This document shows positions 1-61,216 of a DNA stretch of 64,000 nt, piece by piece (the stretch's first letter is position 1; every line of letters starts with the position of its first letter). The stretch is from contig CAZTPW010000002.1 in assembly GCA_964615725.1 (NCBI GenBank), forward strand, positions 5,656 to 69,655, in the 5' to 3' direction. A program made the translations under genes and the position numbers. Source of the DNA: an uncultured Candidatus Saccharibacteria bacterium. Lineage in GTDB: Bacteria > Patescibacteriota > Minisyncoccia > Phycocordibacterales > CAZTPW01. The notes under the pieces were generated by a model that ran no database searches, was not told where the DNA came from, and saw only the letters and a program-made list of their open reading frames with translations.

Positions 1-110
1 TTCGAACTCCACCGGCTTCATCAGTGGATTGCTTCAATCGGAGGCACCGCCTACGGTCTTCCTTGGTGGCCTTCTGCTCCAGTATTCGCCACCTCGTAGT
101 TTGCATGGTT

Positions 111-138
111 TCAAAAAGGGCGCCCACTGCGGGCGCCC
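111..138 (-). terminator. rho-independent terminator downstream of CDS 161..679
   Basis: GC hairpin GGGCGCCC-ACTGC-GGGCGCCC (118-125/131-138); on the minus strand it is followed by a U-run (complement of A113-117). Confidence 0.6.
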
Positions 139-160
139 TTGATCATATTGTCAAAATTTG

Positions 161-679
161 TCAGAAAACCACCGCATGAGCCGGAGGCTTTTCCAAACCC
201 TCGAATGCATTTTGCAGATCATACATGGTGATATGGTTGATGTCTCGGTTTCCCTCACAATTCCAGTGGGTGTGGGAACTCCCAATAGTTCCATAGACCA
301 TCGCCGCTTGCGTTTTGAAGGTGAGGTTGAGGACGGTACCAACAACGAAATCATTTGTTGAGGGTGAGTCACCGATAATGGTGCGGGTGAGGGTGATCAC
401 CGAGCTCGATGATTGAAAGTGTACAGTGATAGTCTTGCTTTGTTGGAAACACATCACCATTCCATGGCTTGTCTGCCAAGCGATACGGTTCGGTCGAGCC
501 ACATGGTTTGTGGCCTCAGTACTTTTTTCAAGCAACGGCAATTGAGCCTTGCTTCCATGTGACCACTTTGGTAGGAGTACGAATGTTAAAAGGCCTAATA
601 TGGCCAAGGCCATAAAGCCAGCGACAAAAAGGCCGCCATTTCCACCGGTTGGGACACTGCCCATGGTATTTCGATGCAT
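161..679 (-). CDS. hypothetical membrane-anchored protein
   Basis: 172-aa ORF with an N-terminal hydrophobic segment (LFVAGFMALAILGLLTFVLL) and a terminator immediately downstream. No recognisable catalytic motif. Confidence 0.5.
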   Translation of the reverse strand: MHRNTMGSVPTGGNGGLFVAGFMALAILGLLTFVLLPKWSHGSKAQLPLLEKSTEATNHVARPNRIAWQTSHGMVMCFQQSKTITVHFQSSSSVITLTRTIIGDSPSTNDFVVGTVLNLTFKTQAAMVYGTIGSSHTHWNCEGNRDINHITMYDLQNAFEGLEKPPAHAVVF

Positions 680-783
680 ATCAGTAGTTTTTGGTTTTGA
701 GTGTGCGAAAGGTCATTAAAAACAATACCACACTTTTTTATAAAAGCAAGTATTTTGGAGAACTATAGCGCTTTTTTAGAATT

Positions 784-1365
784 CTAATCTTTTCTTAAAT
801 CAGCCACCATAACATGCCATTTCAATCCTGAAGTTGCGGTATAGGTCCCAATATCACTTAGATATTTATGTACCGCGCGCGACGTGGTATTTGTGTCTTC
901 AATTTCACCCACACCAAGTTCAAACCCAAAATCTTTGAGTGCGGATTGCGCACTTACATGAAGTCGATTGAAAGTCATTCCATTTCTGAATTTTTTAGCT
1001 ATGCAAATCTGTGCAAGTATTGCGTATCGATAGTCCCCAAGAGGTTTTTCCTCATAGGTCATCCTCTCTGCATTTTCCACAAGTTCACGTTCAAAGGGGA
1101 TTGATAGCGCGAGTTCTTTACTCATGGTCATGAGATATCCTTTTAGTTCAGTTCCTTGAAGACTTAGATAAATTCCTGTGTCATGAATAATTTTTTCTAA
1201 CTCAACAGTGGTTGGTTCATAATAAAGAAAACCATCACTTTTTTCTTCTTGAGTTAGGTTTTTTGCAAGATTTTCTCTTAACAAGGAAAATATAATCGGG
1301 ATATCATGTATCTCAGCTTTTCTTAAAATGTTTTCGTTAGGTTTTTTAGACTCAAATGAATTCAT
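784..1365 (-). CDS. hypothetical protein, possibly GNAT-like acetyltransferase; AT-rich, likely horizontally acquired
   Basis: The ORF-track entry 784..1488 begins inside the tRNA at 1465..1538, so the start was trimmed to the in-frame ATG at 1363-1365 (MNSFESKK...). The gene is ~35% GC versus ~46% for its neighbours. A GNAT-like core (YRYAILAQICIAKKFRNGMTF) is only weakly recognisable. Confidence 0.45.
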   Translation of the reverse strand: MNSFESKKPNENILRKAEIHDIPIIFSLLRENLAKNLTQEEKSDGFLYYEPTTVELEKIIHDTGIYLSLQGTELKGYLMTMSKELALSIPFERELVENAERMTYEEKPLGDYRYAILAQICIAKKFRNGMTFNRLHVSAQSALKDFGFELGVGEIEDTNTTSRAVHKYLSDIGTYTATSGLKWHVMVADLRKD

Positions 1366-1383
1366 AGAATTTATCAATATTTT

Positions 1384-1424
1384 GTCCGCCCTCTTGGATT
1401 CGAACCAAGGACCGCCGAGGTATA
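1384..1424 (-). repeat. 41-nt duplicate of the 3' half of tRNA-Ile (att-site-like remnant)
   Basis: 1384..1424 (gtccgccctcttggattcgaaccaaggaccgccgaggtata) is 40/41 identical to 1464..1504, the 3' part of the adjacent tRNA. The upstream flank cannot form an acceptor stem, so this is a fragment and not a second tRNA. Confidence 0.7.
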
Positions 1425-1464
1425 CTTCGTATCGGCTCTGCGCTCGCACCTCTGAAAAATCACG

Positions 1465-1538
1465 TCCACCCTCTTGGATTCGAACCAAGGACCGCCGAGG
1501 TATAAGCTCGGTGCTCTAGCCAACTGAGCTAAGGGTGG
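1465..1538 (-). tRNA. tRNA-Ile, anticodon UAU (TAT)
   Basis: The minus-strand read folds as a canonical cloverleaf. Acceptor stem CCACCCT/AGGGTGG. D-arm TAGCTCAGTTGGCTAGAGC. Anticodon stem CCGAG/CTCGG with loop CTTATAC (U33, anticodon UAU, A37). T-arm CTTGG-TTCGAAT-CCAAG. Discriminator A. CCA is not encoded. Confidence 0.8.
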
Positions 1539-1647
1539 ACGTCATTTTTCAAGGCGCTCGTTTGAGCCAATAAGCTCGTTGCGTAAGCCACCATCGCTAA
1601 GGCGGATATGGCTACAAACTATCGCAATGTAAGCCTACCGTATTTTC

Positions 1648-1780
1648 TTGACACCGTCTATTCTGCCGACTAGCATTGGGTTACCATGGTAGCCTTTCAT
1701 GTTGGGTAATGGCCGATTGGTCCTGGCACTGTTGCCTTGTAGGAGGGTGGGTGATACGTCACCGCCCTCTATTTTTTTAT
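1648..1780 (+). ncRNA. candidate small RNA: sigma70-like promoter plus intrinsic terminator with no ORF
   Basis: TTGACA (1648-1653), a 17-nt spacer and TAGCAT (1671-1676). About 100 nt downstream is a hairpin AGGGTGG...CCGCCCT (1744-1768) followed by a T7 run (1772-1778). The unit is convergent with the recG 3' end. It contains an internal hairpin GGTTACCATGGTAGCC. No coding potential. Confidence 0.25.
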
Positions 1781-1785
1781 CTAGC

Positions 1786-3942
1786 TTATTCAAAATGAAT
1801 CTCGTCTTTTTGATGGGCGATATGTGAAGCCAACTTCGGATAGTCTGAGAGGGTAGGGTCTTCATGAATAATGCGTGCAGCTTCGGTCCTTGCGGCTTCT
1901 ACCATTTTAATATTTTTGATGCCTTCCATCGCAAGGTCGGAGAGACCCCATTGTCGACGACCATAGAGTTCGCCTGCGCCACGAAGCATAAGGTCTTGCT
2001 CAGCAAGCTCGAAACCATTTTTTGCTGTGATGAGTGCCTTGAGACGGTCGACAGTCTTCTGACTTTTTGTCTCTGCAAAAAGATAACAGTAAGGTTGATG
2101 CGTTCCTCGAATCACTCGACCGCGAAGCTGGTGAAGTTGTGAGAGGCCAAATCGCTCAGCGCCCTCGATAACGATTACGGTGGCATTCGGTACGTTTACA
2201 CCGACTTCAACCACTGATGTGGCAACGAGAATATCTGTCTTGTGTGCAGAAAAATCAGCCATAATCTCATCTTTTTCTTTTGCCGACATTTTGCTGTGAA
2301 GAATGTCGATTGTGTATTCTTTGAAAATATCACGCTGGAGTCGTTCTGCTTCTTCGGTGACTGATTTTGCATTGAGTGAACCTTCTTTGTCGGGATCGGG
2401 TTCGTAAATGCGAGGGCAAATGATATATGCTTGTCGACCTTCTTTGAGAAGTGCTCGAATGTGTTCGTAGACTTTTTCACGGTTATTAGGCCAGACCATT
2501 TCAGTGATGACAGGTTTTCGTCCGAGGGGCATTTGGTCAAGTAGGGTAATATCAAGATCGCCGTACACCGTCAGTGCGAGCGTTCGCGGAATCGGAGTCG
2601 CCGTCATCGAAAGGAGGTGTGGTGCTCGCCCGTCTTTGCGGGCGAGCTTCTGTCTCTGTGCTGTTCCGAAACGATGTTGCTCATCAATCACTACATACGC
2701 AAGATTTTTAAACTTCACTTCTTTTTGAATGAGCGCATGCGTCCCAATCAAAATCGGAATCTCGCCATTTGCCACCCATTTCAAAAGCTGAGTCCTCGAA
2801 ATATCAGTGAAGCCCTCAGGATTTACCTTTGAAGGAAATTTCTTGCAACCACTCCCAGTAATCAGTCCAATCTGAATCGGCAAATGACGGAAATATTTTA
2901 TAAAAGACTCATAGTGTTGCTTTGCGAGAATCTCAGTCGGCGCCATGTATGCGACTTGGAGTGTCCCAAAATCCTGACCACGCGGTCGAGTGGTGACAAT
3001 AGCGAATGCGGTCGAAGCAGCCACCGCAGTCTTTCCTGAACCGACATCCCCCTCGAGAAGTCGCGACATTGGCGAACTTTTTGAAAAATCAGCGAGGATC
3101 GTCTCAATCGCTCGTGCCTGCGCAGGTGTTTCTTTGAAGGGGAAGCGATCGACAAATTCGCGAATATCTTCGGGTTGTTTCTCAATCGAAAACGCATTCT
3201 GTTCTTCGTAGATCCGACGTTGCATTTGCTTGCGAAGCTGGATCATAAAAATCTCCTCAAAAGCGAAACGTTTCCGTGCAACATCAGCGTCCTGCATTTT
3301 TTGCGGTCCATGAATCCAGACCAGTGCTGTGCGGAGTGATGGTAAGTGATACTGCTCCAAAATCTCCGCGGGGATCGCATCATCTAAAGAATCCAAAAAA
3401 CTCGGCGTCAAAATCTTCTGAATCGCATGATAGATCCAATTCGACGTCACGCCCTTCGACTCCGGATACACAGGATAGAGAATATCTTTCTGACCTTCGC
3501 TTCCAAAGAGGGAATTACCAACACCGATCGGTAACGTCGTCACAACCTCGATCTTCGGATTGCTCATATAAAGCTCACCCTTTCTCTCAGAAATCTTACC
3601 CTCAGCACGCACAAAGCTCTCTTCAGAAATCATCTTCGCGAGATACGGTTGATGAAACCACACCGCCTTGATCGACGAGCTCTGGTCGGTGATCACTGCA
3701 TCGGCCATTGCGATCCTCGTGCGAAAGCCTTTCGATGTTTTGAGTTTGGTGATTTTTCCGAAAATAATTGCAGCATCGCCCTTCTTCAAAGAGGCAATAC
3801 TTTGCACTGAAGCCGTATCGCCATACCGGACAGGGAAATGATAGAGCAAGTCCTCGATCGTCTTGATACCGAGCTTGGTCAAGGCTTTGAGGTGAGCCTC
3901 ATCGAGTCGGCCGATTTCTTTGATAGGTGAATGCAGATTCAT
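1786..3942 (-). CDS. recG: ATP-dependent DNA helicase RecG
   Basis: Walker A GDVGSGKT, DEQH box (VVIDEQHRFG), helicase C-terminal motifs (HQLRGRVIRG) and an N-terminal wedge/helix-hairpin region (KLGIKTIEDLLYHFPVRY). The ORF-track entry 1786..4035 starts at a TTG; the ATG at 3940-3942 (MNLHSPIKEIGRLDE...) gives a typical RecG N-terminus and length (~718 aa). Confidence 0.9.
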   Translation of the reverse strand: MNLHSPIKEIGRLDEAHLKALTKLGIKTIEDLLYHFPVRYGDTASVQSIASLKKGDAAIIFGKITKLKTSKGFRTRIAMADAVITDQSSSIKAVWFHQPYLAKMISEESFVRAEGKISERKGELYMSNPKIEVVTTLPIGVGNSLFGSEGQKDILYPVYPESKGVTSNWIYHAIQKILTPSFLDSLDDAIPAEILEQYHLPSLRTALVWIHGPQKMQDADVARKRFAFEEIFMIQLRKQMQRRIYEEQNAFSIEKQPEDIREFVDRFPFKETPAQARAIETILADFSKSSPMSRLLEGDVGSGKTAVAASTAFAIVTTRPRGQDFGTLQVAYMAPTEILAKQHYESFIKYFRHLPIQIGLITGSGCKKFPSKVNPEGFTDISRTQLLKWVANGEIPILIGTHALIQKEVKFKNLAYVVIDEQHRFGTAQRQKLARKDGRAPHLLSMTATPIPRTLALTVYGDLDITLLDQMPLGRKPVITEMVWPNNREKVYEHIRALLKEGRQAYIICPRIYEPDPDKEGSLNAKSVTEEAERLQRDIFKEYTIDILHSKMSAKEKDEIMADFSAHKTDILVATSVVEVGVNVPNATVIVIEGAERFGLSQLHQLRGRVIRGTHQPYCYLFAETKSQKTVDRLKALITAKNGFELAEQDLMLRGAGELYGRRQWGLSDLAMEGIKNIKMVEAARTEAARIIHEDPTLSDYPKLASHIAHQKDEIHFE

Positions 3943-4025
3943 GTGTGGATATTGTAGCGAAAATACCTTTGAAAAGATATTCAAAAAAGTTGGAATTTGA
4001 TGGTCATATCGATTACAATGCATAT

Positions 4026-4499
4026 ATGAATTCAAAACGCATTATCGGAATCGTTATCGGTATTATTATAATTCTTATCGGAGTGGCGTTTGCGACTCGC
4101 AACCCACAGTCATCATCGACAGATTCTCGTGAGACGGTGCCGGTCATTCCAGCTACTAATGACCAAGCAACCACAACCACTCCTATCAAAGCAACAAGTA
4201 CTCCAGTAAAACCACCCCCAAAACCAACCCCTAAACCAGAAACTCCCGGCATGAATACACCCAATCCTATTACCATGGCAGAAATTGCACAGCACAACAC
4301 AAGCCAGAGCTGTTACTCAGCTATCAATGGTCGAGTCTACAATCTCACCGCATGGATCACGAAGCACCCTGGTGGGTCAGCTCGTATTCTCAAAATCTGT
4401 GGCAAAGATGGAAGTTCAGCATTCAATGCTGAGCACGGTGGTGAGAGCAAACCAGAGGCAATTCTTTCAGAGTATTTTATTGGCGTTCTTAAACAATAA
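4026..4499 (+). CDS. membrane-anchored cytochrome b5-like heme-binding domain protein
   Basis: Start trimmed to the ATG at 4026 (MNSKRIIGIVIGIIIIL...), giving a TM helix. This is followed by a Pro/Thr-rich linker and a C-terminal cyt-b5 HPGG motif (ITKHPGGSARILKICGKDGSSAFNAEHG). Confidence 0.7.
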   Translation: MNSKRIIGIVIGIIIILIGVAFATRNPQSSSTDSRETVPVIPATNDQATTTTPIKATSTPVKPPPKPTPKPETPGMNTPNPITMAEIAQHNTSQSCYSAINGRVYNLTAWITKHPGGSARILKICGKDGSSAFNAEHGGESKPEAILSEYFIGVLKQ

Positions 4500-24374: not shown

Positions 24375-24445
24375 CGCGGGGTAGAGAAGCAGTAACTCGC
24401 AAGGCTCATAACCTTGAGGCCTGGGTGCGATTCCCAGCCCCGCAA
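24375..24445 (+). tRNA. initiator tRNA-fMet, anticodon CAU
   Basis: Ends match E. coli tRNA-fMet: CGCGGGG.../...CCCCGCAA with a C1xA72 mismatch. A11:U24 in the D-stem. Anticodon loop CTCATAA. T-arm CTGGG-TGCGATT-CCCAG, with an unusual G at position 55. Confidence 0.75.
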
Positions 24446-24568
24446 CAAGAATTAGTTGGTGGATAGGGCGGTTATATGATATAAGACATATATATCAGCG
24501 TAGCTGATTTGGTTAGATAACGTCAGTGTGGTACATTTTCAAAGTCTTTTAAATAAGCCAATAAACAT

Positions 24569-24642
24569 GTCGGCGTAGCTCAGTTGGCTAGAGCGTGGGA
24601 CTCATAAGCCCAAGGTCGGAGGTTCGATTCCTCCCGCCGACA
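24569..24642 (+). tRNA. elongator tRNA-Met (anticodon CAU; a lysidine-type Ile2 cannot be excluded from sequence alone)
   Basis: Acceptor GTCGGCG/CGCCGAC. D-arm TAGCTCAGTTGGCTAGAGC. Anticodon loop CTCATAA. T-arm GGAGG-TTCGATT-CCTCC. Discriminator A. Confidence 0.8.
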
Positions 24643-24748
24643 CAACTTTTCGTATCTTTTTGCAGTGCTATACTTATAGTCAGAGTATTTAGGGTCGTTT
24701 GGCACGATCCGCTCTTCAGAAAACCAAACACTTAGCACCCACAAACGC

Positions 24749-38353: not shown

Positions 38354-38424
38354 TGCCGGATCGTCTAAAGGTAGGACACCGCTCTCTGAAAGCGGTAATT
38401 TTGGTTCGATTCCAAGTCCGGCAG
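38354..38424 (+). tRNA. tRNA-Gln, anticodon CUG
   Basis: U1-A72 acceptor (TGCCGGA/TCCGGCA) typical of bacterial tRNA-Gln. D-arm GTCT-AAAGGTA-GGAC. Anticodon stem CCGCT/AGCGG with loop CTCTGAA. T-arm TTTGG-TTCGATT-CCAAG. Discriminator G. Confidence 0.8.
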
Positions 38425-38603
38425 CACGAAGCTCGTTGAAACGAGCGAGTTCGCAGGAAGCTTTATGCTTGAGCATAAAGCGGCTTGGAATCGAACGCCG
38501 GAGCGATGTCGAGCTAGTAAGCGAGACCGCGAGGCGGTGCCCAGCCCTCACTGAGCGTCGGCGAGGTGAGAGGCGAGGGCGATTCCAATTCTCACGAAAA
38601 TAT

Positions 38604-39113
38604 ATGGATACACTCTCAGAAAAAATATTAAATAGACGTATGGTTAAGCTTTTTATCAGATCATGTTTTGAATCGATGGAAATTCTTTCTAAACATCAAT
38701 CTAGTGCCAGTTACCATCTTCCTTACTATTACTTAGCACAAGCTATTCTTGAGTTGTGTCCAAAATTAATTCTTATATCAAAGTTAGAAGGTGAAGGTTT
38801 GTCTGGTGATAATATTAAAAAAGAATTAATGAAGTATGGACATGATCTTGAAAAACTCTTTTCAAATGTGGATATTAAATCAAAATATAATCAAGTTGGT
38901 GGTATAAAAGTTACTAAAGTTACCGAGGAGAATAAAAATTTTTATTACGAATTTGAGACGTTTTCCCCCAAAAAAAAGATTATGATCTATGATTCAGAAT
39001 CTCTTAAATACGGGCTTCTTTCAAACAAGGTTAATATCAGTTACGTTGGTTATCAGTTTAATGATCTTCTTGAACTCTGTAGTATGGTAAGCGATGCTTC
39101 TTTTATTAAATAA
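38604..39113 (+). CDS. hypothetical protein (AT-rich, foreign-looking)
   Basis: Start trimmed to the ATG at 38604 (MDTLSEKIL...). The ORF-track N-terminal extension from 38436 runs through the GC-rich spacer and abuts the tRNA. 169 aa, no confident domain. Confidence 0.5.
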
Positions 39114-39118
39114 TCTAC

Positions 39119-39469
39119 ATGCTTAAAGAAAACCTCTACGCAACAAGTTTCTCAAAAGTGTACCCATACTATATTGCCAAAGCAGAAAGGAAAGGTCGTA
39201 CCAAGGCAGAAGTTGACCAGATTATTTGTTGGCTCACCGGCTACACGCACAAGCAATTTGAAAAGCACTTGGAGAAGGGTACCGATTTCAAGACCTTCTA
39301 TCTCAAAGCCACAAAACCCAACCCTAAAAGGAAGCTCATTAAAGGTGTAGTCTGTGGCGTTCGCATCGAAGAAATCACCGACCGAGTGATGCGCGAAATC
39401 CGCTATCTCGACAAACTCATTGACGAACTTGCAAAAGGGAAGAAGATGGAGGCTATCCTGCGCGCGTAG
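39119..39469 (+). CDS. DUF2200 family protein
   Basis: 116 aa. The N-terminal sequence [32 protein letters not shown] matches the conserved DUF2200 core. Confidence 0.65.
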
Positions 39470-39523
39470 CCGCCTTGTATAATAGGGTTATCCGTAGCAA
39501 GATATGCTTTCAAAATCATTACT

Positions 39524-40195
39524 ATGAAAAATCGATACAACAACCTATTAAGTAAGTATAATAAGAAAATCTTAGCGCTTTGCCCCTATAACCCTTTTTT
39601 GTTTACTCTTAACGCGTTAGAGATTCAGAAGATTCATCACCCAACCATGAGAATACTTGAGGTTGGTTCTGGTGAAGGTGATTCAGCATTACCAATTCTA
39701 CAGACCACCACTGCAAAGCTCGATCTCCTCGATGTTTCAGAAGAGATGATTGCAACTTCAAAAAACACACTTCAGTCTTATAAAGAAAGGGTCAATTTTA
39801 TATGCGAAGATGCCCTTATTTATTTAAAAAAGGCAGATCCTTATGATCTGATCTATTCGGCTTGGACAATTCATAATTTTCCTCAGAAAGATAAGAAGGT
39901 TCTCCTCCAGGAAATGTATTCAAATTTAAAGTCAGGTGGCACCCTTATGATTTTGGACAAGGTGTATCAGGATAATAATCGTGAAGATTTTTTGCAGCGA
40001 CAAAATAATCGATATAAAAATTACCTCGATAAGGAACTTGCCAATGCGATTATTGAGCACGAGATCGAAGATGCTACAGATGAATATAGACTTGATGAAA
40101 CATCTTTTTCCACACTTCTCAAATCTATTGGCTTTCGAAGTGTCGATAGTATCGATCGAATTGAAAGAGATTGTTTGATACGAGCAGTCAAGTAA
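39524..40195 (+). CDS. class I SAM-dependent methyltransferase (AT-rich)
   Basis: Motif I ILEVGSGEGDSA. Motif post-I LDLLDVSEEM. 223 aa, ~33% GC. Confidence 0.7.
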   Translation: MKNRYNNLLSKYNKKILALCPYNPFLFTLNALEIQKIHHPTMRILEVGSGEGDSALPILQTTTAKLDLLDVSEEMIATSKNTLQSYKERVNFICEDALIYLKKADPYDLIYSAWTIHNFPQKDKKVLLQEMYSNLKSGGTLMILDKVYQDNNREDFLQRQNNRYKNYLDKELANAIIEHEIEDATDEYRLDETSFSTLLKSIGFRSVDSIDRIERDCLIRAVK

Positions 40196-60878: not shown

Positions 60879-60884
60879 CATATG

Positions 60885-61216
60885 CTTTGTATCTATAAGC
60901 CGAATTTTGTACTCGCAAAAGCGATGATCATTTATCTGGGCCAGCCGTTACCGTCTGGCTCAAGCGGCACTCTTCATCACCGAAGCGATGAAGCACGACC
61001 TTGCACGTGGGTAAGAATTTAGCCGTTGCACCCTCCGTATTGCTACGAAGACTCGTCTCTGTTCGCATCTCTTGGATTGCTCCAGACGGGCGTTACCCGC
61101 TACCTTGCTGATTCTGTGTTGCCACAGAGTTCACGTGTTCGGACTTTCCTCACGAAAGATAGGGAACTCGCTTGGGGCAAGCTATGTCTCACGCGCGATC
61201 ATCCAATACAAAGACC
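60885..61216 (-). ncRNA. rnpB: RNase P RNA (bacterial type A)
   Basis: The minus-strand read contains the P4 5' strand GAGGAAAGTCCGAAC. It also has CAGCAAGGTAGCGGGTAACGCCCGTCTGGAGCAATCC (compare the E. coli M1 segment GGTAACGCCTGGG). The P4 3' strand reads GGCCCAGATAAATGATCATCGC...ACAAAATTCGGCTTA (compare GGCCTAGATGAATGA...ACAGAACCCGGCTTA). P1 pairing joins GGGTCTTTGTAT (5') with ATACAAAG (3'). Length ~330 nt. Confidence 0.9.

Follow-up and report, generated by a model that had tools for sequence, protein, structure and literature searches.

Why should a complete tRNA gene lie beside a 41-nt copy of its own 3' half? The question is raised by a stretch of 64,000 nucleotides (64 kb; here called the window) from contig CAZTPW010000002.1 of an uncultured Candidatus Saccharibacteria bacterium, in which a tRNA-Ile gene with anticodon UAU is found on the minus strand close to an AT-rich gene, g193. 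The original prediction took the partial copy to be the scar of site-specific integration at a rare tRNA gene and the AT-rich neighbor to be what was left of the integrated element. Our analysis points to a different arrangement. The region 1384..1605 likely holds a tRNA-Ile(UAU) gene that is nested within an older copy of itself, the older copy having been split at the anticodon by a hairpin-armed insert.

The intact gene and its partial copy are as first described. ARAGORN places a tRNA-Ile gene of anticodon TAT on the minus strand at 1464..1538, and the Rfam tRNA covariance model matches 1465..1538 with 67.8 bits (gathering score 29) and gives CUUAUAC as the anticodon loop. The tRNA has C1:G72, A3:U70 and discriminator A73, base 1464 being C74, and it is presumed to be the working gene. 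Positions 1384..1424 match 1464..1504 at 40 of 41 bases; these are the only two copies in the window, and 100 shuffles gave none. The copy runs from tRNA position 34, the first anticodon base, to position 73 plus one base, and its sole mismatch lies at acceptor-stem position 70, where the tRNA has T and the copy C. Starting at GCGGTCC, it agrees in every base with the intact tRNA of a related locus, L040, whose acceptor stem is CCGCCCT/AGGGCGG with G3:C70. On the other side of the gene, a repeat search found a 33-nt copy of the tRNA 5' half at 1570..1602, which by eye reaches 1605; its D arm is disrupted, and it carries a G3 that fits the C70 of the displaced 3' half. Since this 5' half stands upstream, the two halves of a split older copy enclose the intact tRNA. 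The two acceptor alleles, CCGCCCT/AGGGCGG (G3:C70) outside and CCACCCT/AGGGTGG (A3:U70) inside, differ in a compensated way, and this difference, together with the identity to L040, argues that the outer copy is a natural allele and not a randomly mutated duplicate.

Read along the tRNA strand, the order is outer 5' half, left arm X, intact tRNA, right arm Y and outer 3' half (coordinates in Table 1), and the arm-tRNA-arm unit of 145 bp sits inside the anticodon TATA of the older tRNA-Ile(UAU) gene. A 20-nt inverted repeat (1453..1472 with 1532..1551, 95% complementary) encloses the tRNA and spans its acceptor stem and the adjoining parts of the arms. Arm X pairs with arm Y, and the resulting rod prolongs the inner acceptor stem; in the RNA fold of the 266-nt region the inner cloverleaf stands at the tip of a long rod (-108.5 kcal/mol, z = -5.8), and in this minimum free energy structure the outer acceptor strands pair with one another. 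The first bases of the outer 3' half pair with the tail of arm Y, GATACGAAG, in a mini-hairpin (ATAC-GAA-GTAT). A simple tandem duplication was ruled out, as the sequences that follow the tRNA and the copy are wholly different beyond the 41 nt, and so was an assembly artefact, the same layout being present in many independent assemblies.

The window was compared with 161 related loci or contigs (labeled L001, L014, L040 and so on), 80 from GTDB genomes and another 80 from JGI/ENA metagenome contigs, 113 of the loci being unique. RecG of the window is 53-71% identical to that of its nearest GTDB relatives, whose metagenome-assembled genomes are labeled Paceibacterota, Parcubacteria, Zambryski-, Yonath-, Vogel- or Taylorbacteria, all within the Patescibacteria or candidate phyla radiation (CPR). 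No JGI/ENA metagenome locus is closer than 69%, and neither the GTDB genomes nor the JGI metagenomes yielded a relative above 71%. A tRNA-Ile(TAT) gene is found near recG in 124 of the 161 loci, mostly between recG and ftsH, and so the UAU tRNA belongs to the conserved synteny of the lineage and is no local oddity, one-off mutation or pseudogene: it is near-universal in the relatives and was not imported by an element peculiar to the genome of the window, which contradicts the rarity first claimed for it. The gene ftsH is convergent with the tRNA and ends about 123 bp to the left of the window start, as seen on L001, a Logan assembly contig from run SRR11567528 whose positions 1..1820 correspond to window positions 1413 to about -407. 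Across the related loci the recG-tRNA and tRNA-ftsH spacings range from about 20 bp to 6 kb, a variability that marks both gaps as insertion hot spots.

Aligning each tRNA-Ile(UAU) to its own flanks showed that the nested layout recurs. Half copies are found solely in the nested orientation (upstream for 5' parts, downstream for 3' parts), while control orientations score at most 22, and at least 19 of the 113 unique loci have a half copy with its breakpoint at the anticodon (among them L019, L021, L040, L041, L043, L057, L059, L065, L070, L071, L106, L114 and L130, and further L135/L136, L139, L150 and L152/L153). The junctions lie in the anticodon, 5' copies ending in CTTAT(A) and 3' copies beginning with TATAC; TA or TATA stands at both junctions in most loci, and L059 lacks the duplication. 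These loci are spread over at least 14 RecG clusters, among relatives that are not nested. Strong complementarity between leader and trailer is confined to loci with outer halves, no comparable rod was found at 123 other tRNAs of the same loci, and the half copies at other tRNAs are short 3'-end repeats. A split tRNA-Ile lacking an intact inner copy was not found among the related loci, nor was one that holds the arm module but no inner tRNA.

The arms themselves are conserved as structure. Their lengths are kept among relatives (X about 31 nt; Y 38-42 nt in 10 loci), and an alignment of 14 units from 11 genomes on invariant GA dinucleotides gave a common core, in which P1, xA-RY-GA and P2 on one strand face P2', GA-RY-Gxx and P1' on the other. 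In this core 90.5% of cells are paired, against 59% in shuffles and at most 39% when the partner columns are slid, and compensatory changes are present at 11 of the 12 arm pairs. The rod contains a conserved purine-rich internal loop, whose invariant A/GA and GA/G allow a tandem G.A motif to form beside a 2-bp helix. In 14 of 15 nested loci (p = 0.002) the duplex of leader and trailer has its higher stability on the tRNA-sense strand, with 11 G.U against 1 A.C pairs, and what is constrained is therefore a single strand in its folded form, be it a transcript or that strand of the DNA. A version without the tRNA, module A, whose rod ends in a closing hairpin, adjoins the tRNA unit in some loci; two free-standing copies were found (L041:17-79 and L058:5423-5500).

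How an intact gene came to lie within a split one is best seen where the two differ. In L059, L106 and L152/L153 the acceptor and anticodon stems of the inner tRNA are unlike those of the split outer gene. When loci were clustered on RecG, the split outer allele in all three clades proved to be the intact allele of the sisters (GGGCGCA in L137 and L151; GCGCGCA in L027 and L101; GCGCGTG..GGCGTC in L064 and L133). An outer allele that equals the intact allele of the sisters, around an inner allele that is different, indicates allele replacement by insertion. In L140 the invading allele is present with little trace of nesting, and L139 is a decay intermediate, without the arm Y and outer 3' half that its relative L152 still has; both are what recombination of the inner with the outer halves should yield. 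Some nests have three layers, with two arm types interleaved in L135/L136 and three different alleles in L106.

These observations lead us to propose, tentatively, that the unit may be a selfish, non-coding, hairpin-armed cassette with a complete tRNA-Ile(UAU) gene, which inserts into the anticodon TATA and kills and replaces the resident gene in one step. Arm, tRNA and arm probably entered as one piece, so that the resident gene was destroyed while its replacement was supplied; the inner tRNA probably does the work now, with the outer halves as relics. Because such a cassette would replace the gene it splits, the insert would be indispensable, and because it would recreate its own target, the inner tRNA offering a fresh one, re-invasion would be possible and would account for nests of three layers. 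Subsequent homologous recombination of the inner with the outer halves would delete the arms and restore a single, possibly new, allele, erasing the traces of the event, with a turnover of tRNA alleles across Paceibacteria as the result. A dedicated enzyme may not be needed for spread, as the 36-41-nt tRNA halves could serve as homology arms when DNA of an invaded genome recombines with an intact tRNA gene, the rod holding both halves side by side; alternatively, a structure-specific recombinase or transposase might act at TATA. The arms could serve insertion, by juxtaposing the homology arms or as a recombinase substrate, the release of the inner tRNA, or both, and the sense-strand bias would fit a single-stranded DNA substrate as well as a rod that frees the inner tRNA from a transcript with competing half copies. 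The neighbors of the nested loci include proteins resembling type IV secretion system pilins, VanY, TraX, an amino-acid kinase and an ATP-grasp protein. A phage origin was rejected, a pattern scan of IMG/VR having given 14 matches that were all due to chance and without a tRNA.

Several points weigh against this reading of the locus. No recombinase, integrase or homing endonuclease adjoins 10 nested loci, and Pfam, NCBIfam and PHROG scans found no integrase or recombinase in this region of the window. Arm modules that stand free are seldom found away from the tRNA-Ile locus and so give no evidence of a dispersed mobile family, and the core alignment of the arms was built by hand around the invariant GA motifs. 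No empty site was found for the window's own locus, the RecG relatives reaching only 71% identity. Alleles in L147 and L150 are mosaic, which means that gene conversion also acts at tRNA-Ile loci and that recombination blurs their history, and in several genomes (L019, L021, L071 and L135) inner tRNA and outer halves share 97-100% identity, which vertical inheritance with gene conversion would also produce.

This identity fits an ancient duplication, vertically inherited and immobile, whose arms aid folding and processing of the inner tRNA, whose copies are kept alike by gene conversion and whose multiple layers come from unequal crossing-over. The covariation of the arms is what would be seen in an old structured RNA, the sense-strand bias suggests a role in a transcript, a D-loop insertion common to the outer 5' halves of L147, L150 and L152 speaks for vertical descent within that clade, and by reasoning two unequal crossovers can give the nested order with identical arms. 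We nevertheless consider this history unlikely, as it does not sit well with the strongly different inner and outer alleles of L059, L106 and L152, where the outer one matches intact sister alleles, with the interleaved arm types of L135 and the three alleles nested in L106, or with the scatter of nested loci over RecG clusters among non-nested relatives.

In some of the defunct outer 5' halves, the D loop holds GC-rich hairpins of 23-33 nt (e.g., TTGCCCCGCCCGGCGGGGTGAAG) whose insertion is shared by members of a clade; they are found in L135 (about 2120..2155), in the outer 5' halves of L147, L150 and L152, and upstream in L071. Upstream of tRNA-Ile in L047 (4529..4636), L049, L054, L016 and L007 there are one to three tandem units of about 36 nt, which copy the tRNA's own 5' acceptor strand, different between genomes, and share a common variant D region, GCTGTTTTGGTAG. 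These units are either a co-evolving element resembling a 5' half or a product of unequal crossing-over.

It is quite improbable that the locus is a classic tRNA-targeted island scar, in which an integrase-borne element entered the tRNA's 3' half, the 41-nt copy is the displaced attachment (att) site and the AT-rich gene is a remnant of the island. The repeat does span the anticodon loop to the 3' end of the tRNA, the usual extent of an att identity block, downstream of an intact tRNA and in a variable neighborhood, as at the scars of integrase-borne islands and phages; g193 is foreign in composition and varies between genomes; a homolog of it lies 68 bp downstream of a tRNA-Met on another contig; and nine related loci carry tRNA 3'-end copies of 15-19 nt at 20-180 bp downstream. 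Against this, the gap between repeat and intact tRNA measures just 39 bp, g193 is not enclosed by the pair but follows 18 bp downstream of the outer 3' half, and there is neither an integrase nor a third repeat bounding g193 and its neighbor g172, scores between 1384 and ftsH, including the 407 bp to the left of the window, staying at the null level. The scar would also leave unexplained the upstream 5' half, the complementary arms and the recurrence with conserved dimensions, whereas the locus described here has a 145-bp insert that carries a whole tRNA between complementary structured flanks. Of the integration first proposed, the insertion event at a tRNA gene with its breakpoint in the anticodon loop stands, while the topology of an island scar does not, and a lone scar is contradicted by the short spacing, the missing integrase and the 5' half upstream.

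The AT-rich gene has its own history. Its low GC content was described correctly (about 35% against about 46%; we measured 36.4% against 45.5% for the window, within the lowest 0.9% of 582-nt windows), its GC content at third codon positions is 27.5% against 45.6%, and ATA makes up 4 of its 14 Ile codons against 6% in long open reading frames (ORFs) of the window. No Pfam, NCBIfam or PHROG match was found for g193, and 5.8 billion clustered proteins contain nine homologs, one of which its source names a YncA-like N-acyltransferase. The AlphaFold model that these nine sequences gave (predicted local distance difference test score [pLDDT] 86.5) has only GNAT N-acetyltransferases as its top PDB matches in Foldseek, and g193 is accordingly predicted by this model to encode a GNAT-fold N-acetyltransferase. 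The homologs are found in unrelated contexts on lower-GC CPR-like contigs, and neither g193 nor g172 gave a tblastn match in any of the 80 GTDB relatives. Rare homologs, varied contexts and absence from relatives mark g193 as an accessory gene of the tRNA-ftsH hot spot that is variable and was acquired recently. When the locus was aligned with related genomes, as the original prediction had suggested, the anticodon-split half copies proved variable but recurrent and none of the 160 related loci had g193, so conserved synteny does not speak against its foreign origin. What survives of the idea that it is a remnant of an integrated element is its foreign composition and variability; it lies outside the repeat pair and has neither a second repeat nor an integrase. 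Together, g193 and g172 are separate variable accessory genes and not cargo of the nested unit. L001 carries both genes identically and begins inside the 41-nt copy, the assembly being broken at the repeat; the 280 nt that separate g172 from ftsH on this contig have no Rfam match.

Another parallel comes from archaea, in which a tRNA-Thr 5' fragment was found 1.8 kb upstream of the gene with an element in between that encodes a recombinase, in a heterogeneous population (Sugahara et al. 2012; PMC3293823). That case also has a 5' fragment upstream of an intact copy and was also read as insertion and recombination. It involves a 1.8-kb recombinase element and bulge-helix-bulge introns, whereas the unit described here is bacterial, non-coding and hairpin-armed, the tRNA is split exactly at the anticodon, and both halves are kept around the new gene.

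Bacteria are not known to have a protein-based tRNA splicing endonuclease. It is very improbable that the outer gene is a working intron-containing tRNA gene from which rod and inner tRNA are spliced out, one transcript giving two tRNA-Ile(UAU). The insert does lie at or near the canonical intron position (36/37/38), its structure is selected on the sense strand with a conserved internal loop, and Patescibacteria often have group I introns in their tRNA genes (PMC13011429). Against this, many loci, the window among them (5' half 25/33, D arm disrupted), have decayed outer halves, no split tRNA-Ile without an inner intact copy was found, and Rfam scans of window positions 1300..1760 and of L041 4560..4960 gave tRNA and tRNA-antisense matches only, with no intron or ribozyme family. 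Those group I introns share with our locus the phylum, the anticodon-loop target and the interrupted tRNA gene; the insert here has no group I signature, is far too short and contains a tRNA, and its outer exons decay.

Miniature inverted-repeat transposable elements (MITEs), such as the Correia elements of Neisseria, are small, palindromic and non-autonomous and have TA or TATA flanks. The unit in the window shares with them its small size, the lack of coding sequence, the paired ends and the TATA at either junction, and tRNA-less copies exist in the form of module A. Unlike MITEs, it carries a tRNA gene, its copies are almost confined to one locus, and its ends are conserved in structure and not in sequence, with an asymmetric internal loop. 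A covariance model of the tRNA-less module, run on the window and about 2 Mb of recG neighborhoods, found none in the window and no wide dispersal, and a dispersed MITE family was ruled out, as the model finds just two copies away from tRNA-Ile loci. The locus is best classed as a disruption of a tRNA gene by insertion that lacks the defining features of scars, introns and MITEs.

The literature that we searched describes neither a tRNA gene that is nested in its own split copy nor a UAU tRNA in CPR bacteria. Studies of split and intron-containing tRNAs have long asked where tRNA genes split at the anticodon loop come from and what part mobile DNA plays, and these loci appear to show bacterial stages of such a process, namely, fresh nests, decaying halves and finished replacements, so that existing metagenomes can be used to test the question. 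If a cassette is at work, a non-coding element would persist by carrying the essential gene that it destroys. In practical terms, tRNA half copies beside tRNA genes in CPR genomes are not automatically island boundaries, and they break short-read assemblies, as the Logan contig shows.

The tRNA-Ile(UAU) is the rule in Paceibacteria, which raises the question of AUA decoding without lysidine. In Mycoplasma mobile, a UAU anticodon reads AUA and tilS is absent (PMC3575796); the genomic UAU anticodon in a bacterial tRNA-Ile is common to that organism, with others, and the window, whereas here it is lineage-wide. No ORF with an SGGxDS PP-loop was found in the 64-kb window or in 2 Mb of related loci, and ATA is used at 4.8 per 1000 codons in the window. 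Two tRNA-CAU genes lie 120 bp apart: the one at 24375..24446 (C1.A72) looks like an initiator, and the one at 24569..24643, of elongator type, could be Met or Ile2 and has an A31.G39 mismatch that is also found in the CAU tRNA of a CPR-like contig (L180). In the complete relative OY970290.1 (L014 15716..16861), the region upstream of ftsH contains a serine-recombinase-like fragment, a methyltransferase and a BsuBI/PstI-type restriction system, and not tilS-hpt.

Table 1. Features of the nested tRNA-Ile(UAU) locus and its neighborhood, in order along the minus strand from recG
Feature	Coordinates	Strand	Sequence or remarks	Evidence
recG	1786..3942	-	syntenic anchor	Pfam RecG_wedge/DEAD/Helicase_C; synteny in relatives
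Outer 5' half	1570..1605	-	decayed, positions 1-36; CCGCCTTAGCGATGGTGGCTTACGCAACGAGCTTAT	direct repeat 76%; local alignment 25/33
Left arm X	1539..1569	-	31 nt; TGGCTC-AAACGA-GCGCCT-TGAAAAATGACGT	inverted repeat; cofold/duplex; core-motif alignment
Inner tRNA-Ile(UAU)	1465..1538	-	intact	ARAGORN; Rfam tRNA; cloverleaf in RNA fold
Right arm Y	1425..1463	-	39 nt; GTGATTTTTCAG-AGGTGC-GAGCGCA-GAGCC, then GATACGAAG	cofold/duplex analysis
Outer 3' half	1384..1424	-	displaced, positions 34-74; TATACC...AGGGCGGAC (1424..1384)	40/41 identity; C70 instead of U70
g193	784..1365 (ORF 787..1365, stop 784..786)	-	AT-rich accessory gene	AlphaFold2 model and Foldseek
g172/g167	161..664	-	hypothetical protein; N-terminal hydrophobic segment; normal GC	no Pfam/NCBIfam/PHROG match

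Partial copies of other kinds also flank tRNA genes in the related loci. The short 3'-end copies of tRNA-Ile (L012, L023, L026, L033, L037, L067, L072, L088 and L102) are exact, run from the T loop to position 74 and are classic att-type scars, distinct from the anticodon-split nests; L037 has two of them. Downstream of tRNA-Ser(GCU) in L048, L063 and L071 (and L010, L058 and L065), an inverted 18-20 nt copy of the T-arm/acceptor 3' end is found at 40-70 nt, and L071 has a degenerate, interrupted tRNA-Ser copy upstream as well. The lowest-GC stretch of the window (30-37% GC, about 38450..39900) starts right after tRNA-Gln(CTG) at 38354..38425 and is a second AT-rich segment adjacent to a tRNA. 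The window also encodes a bacterial class A RNase P RNA (60880..61214, minus strand, 115.6 bits) and, adjoining recG at 3927..4499, a secreted or membrane-anchored protein with a cytochrome b5-like heme-binding domain.

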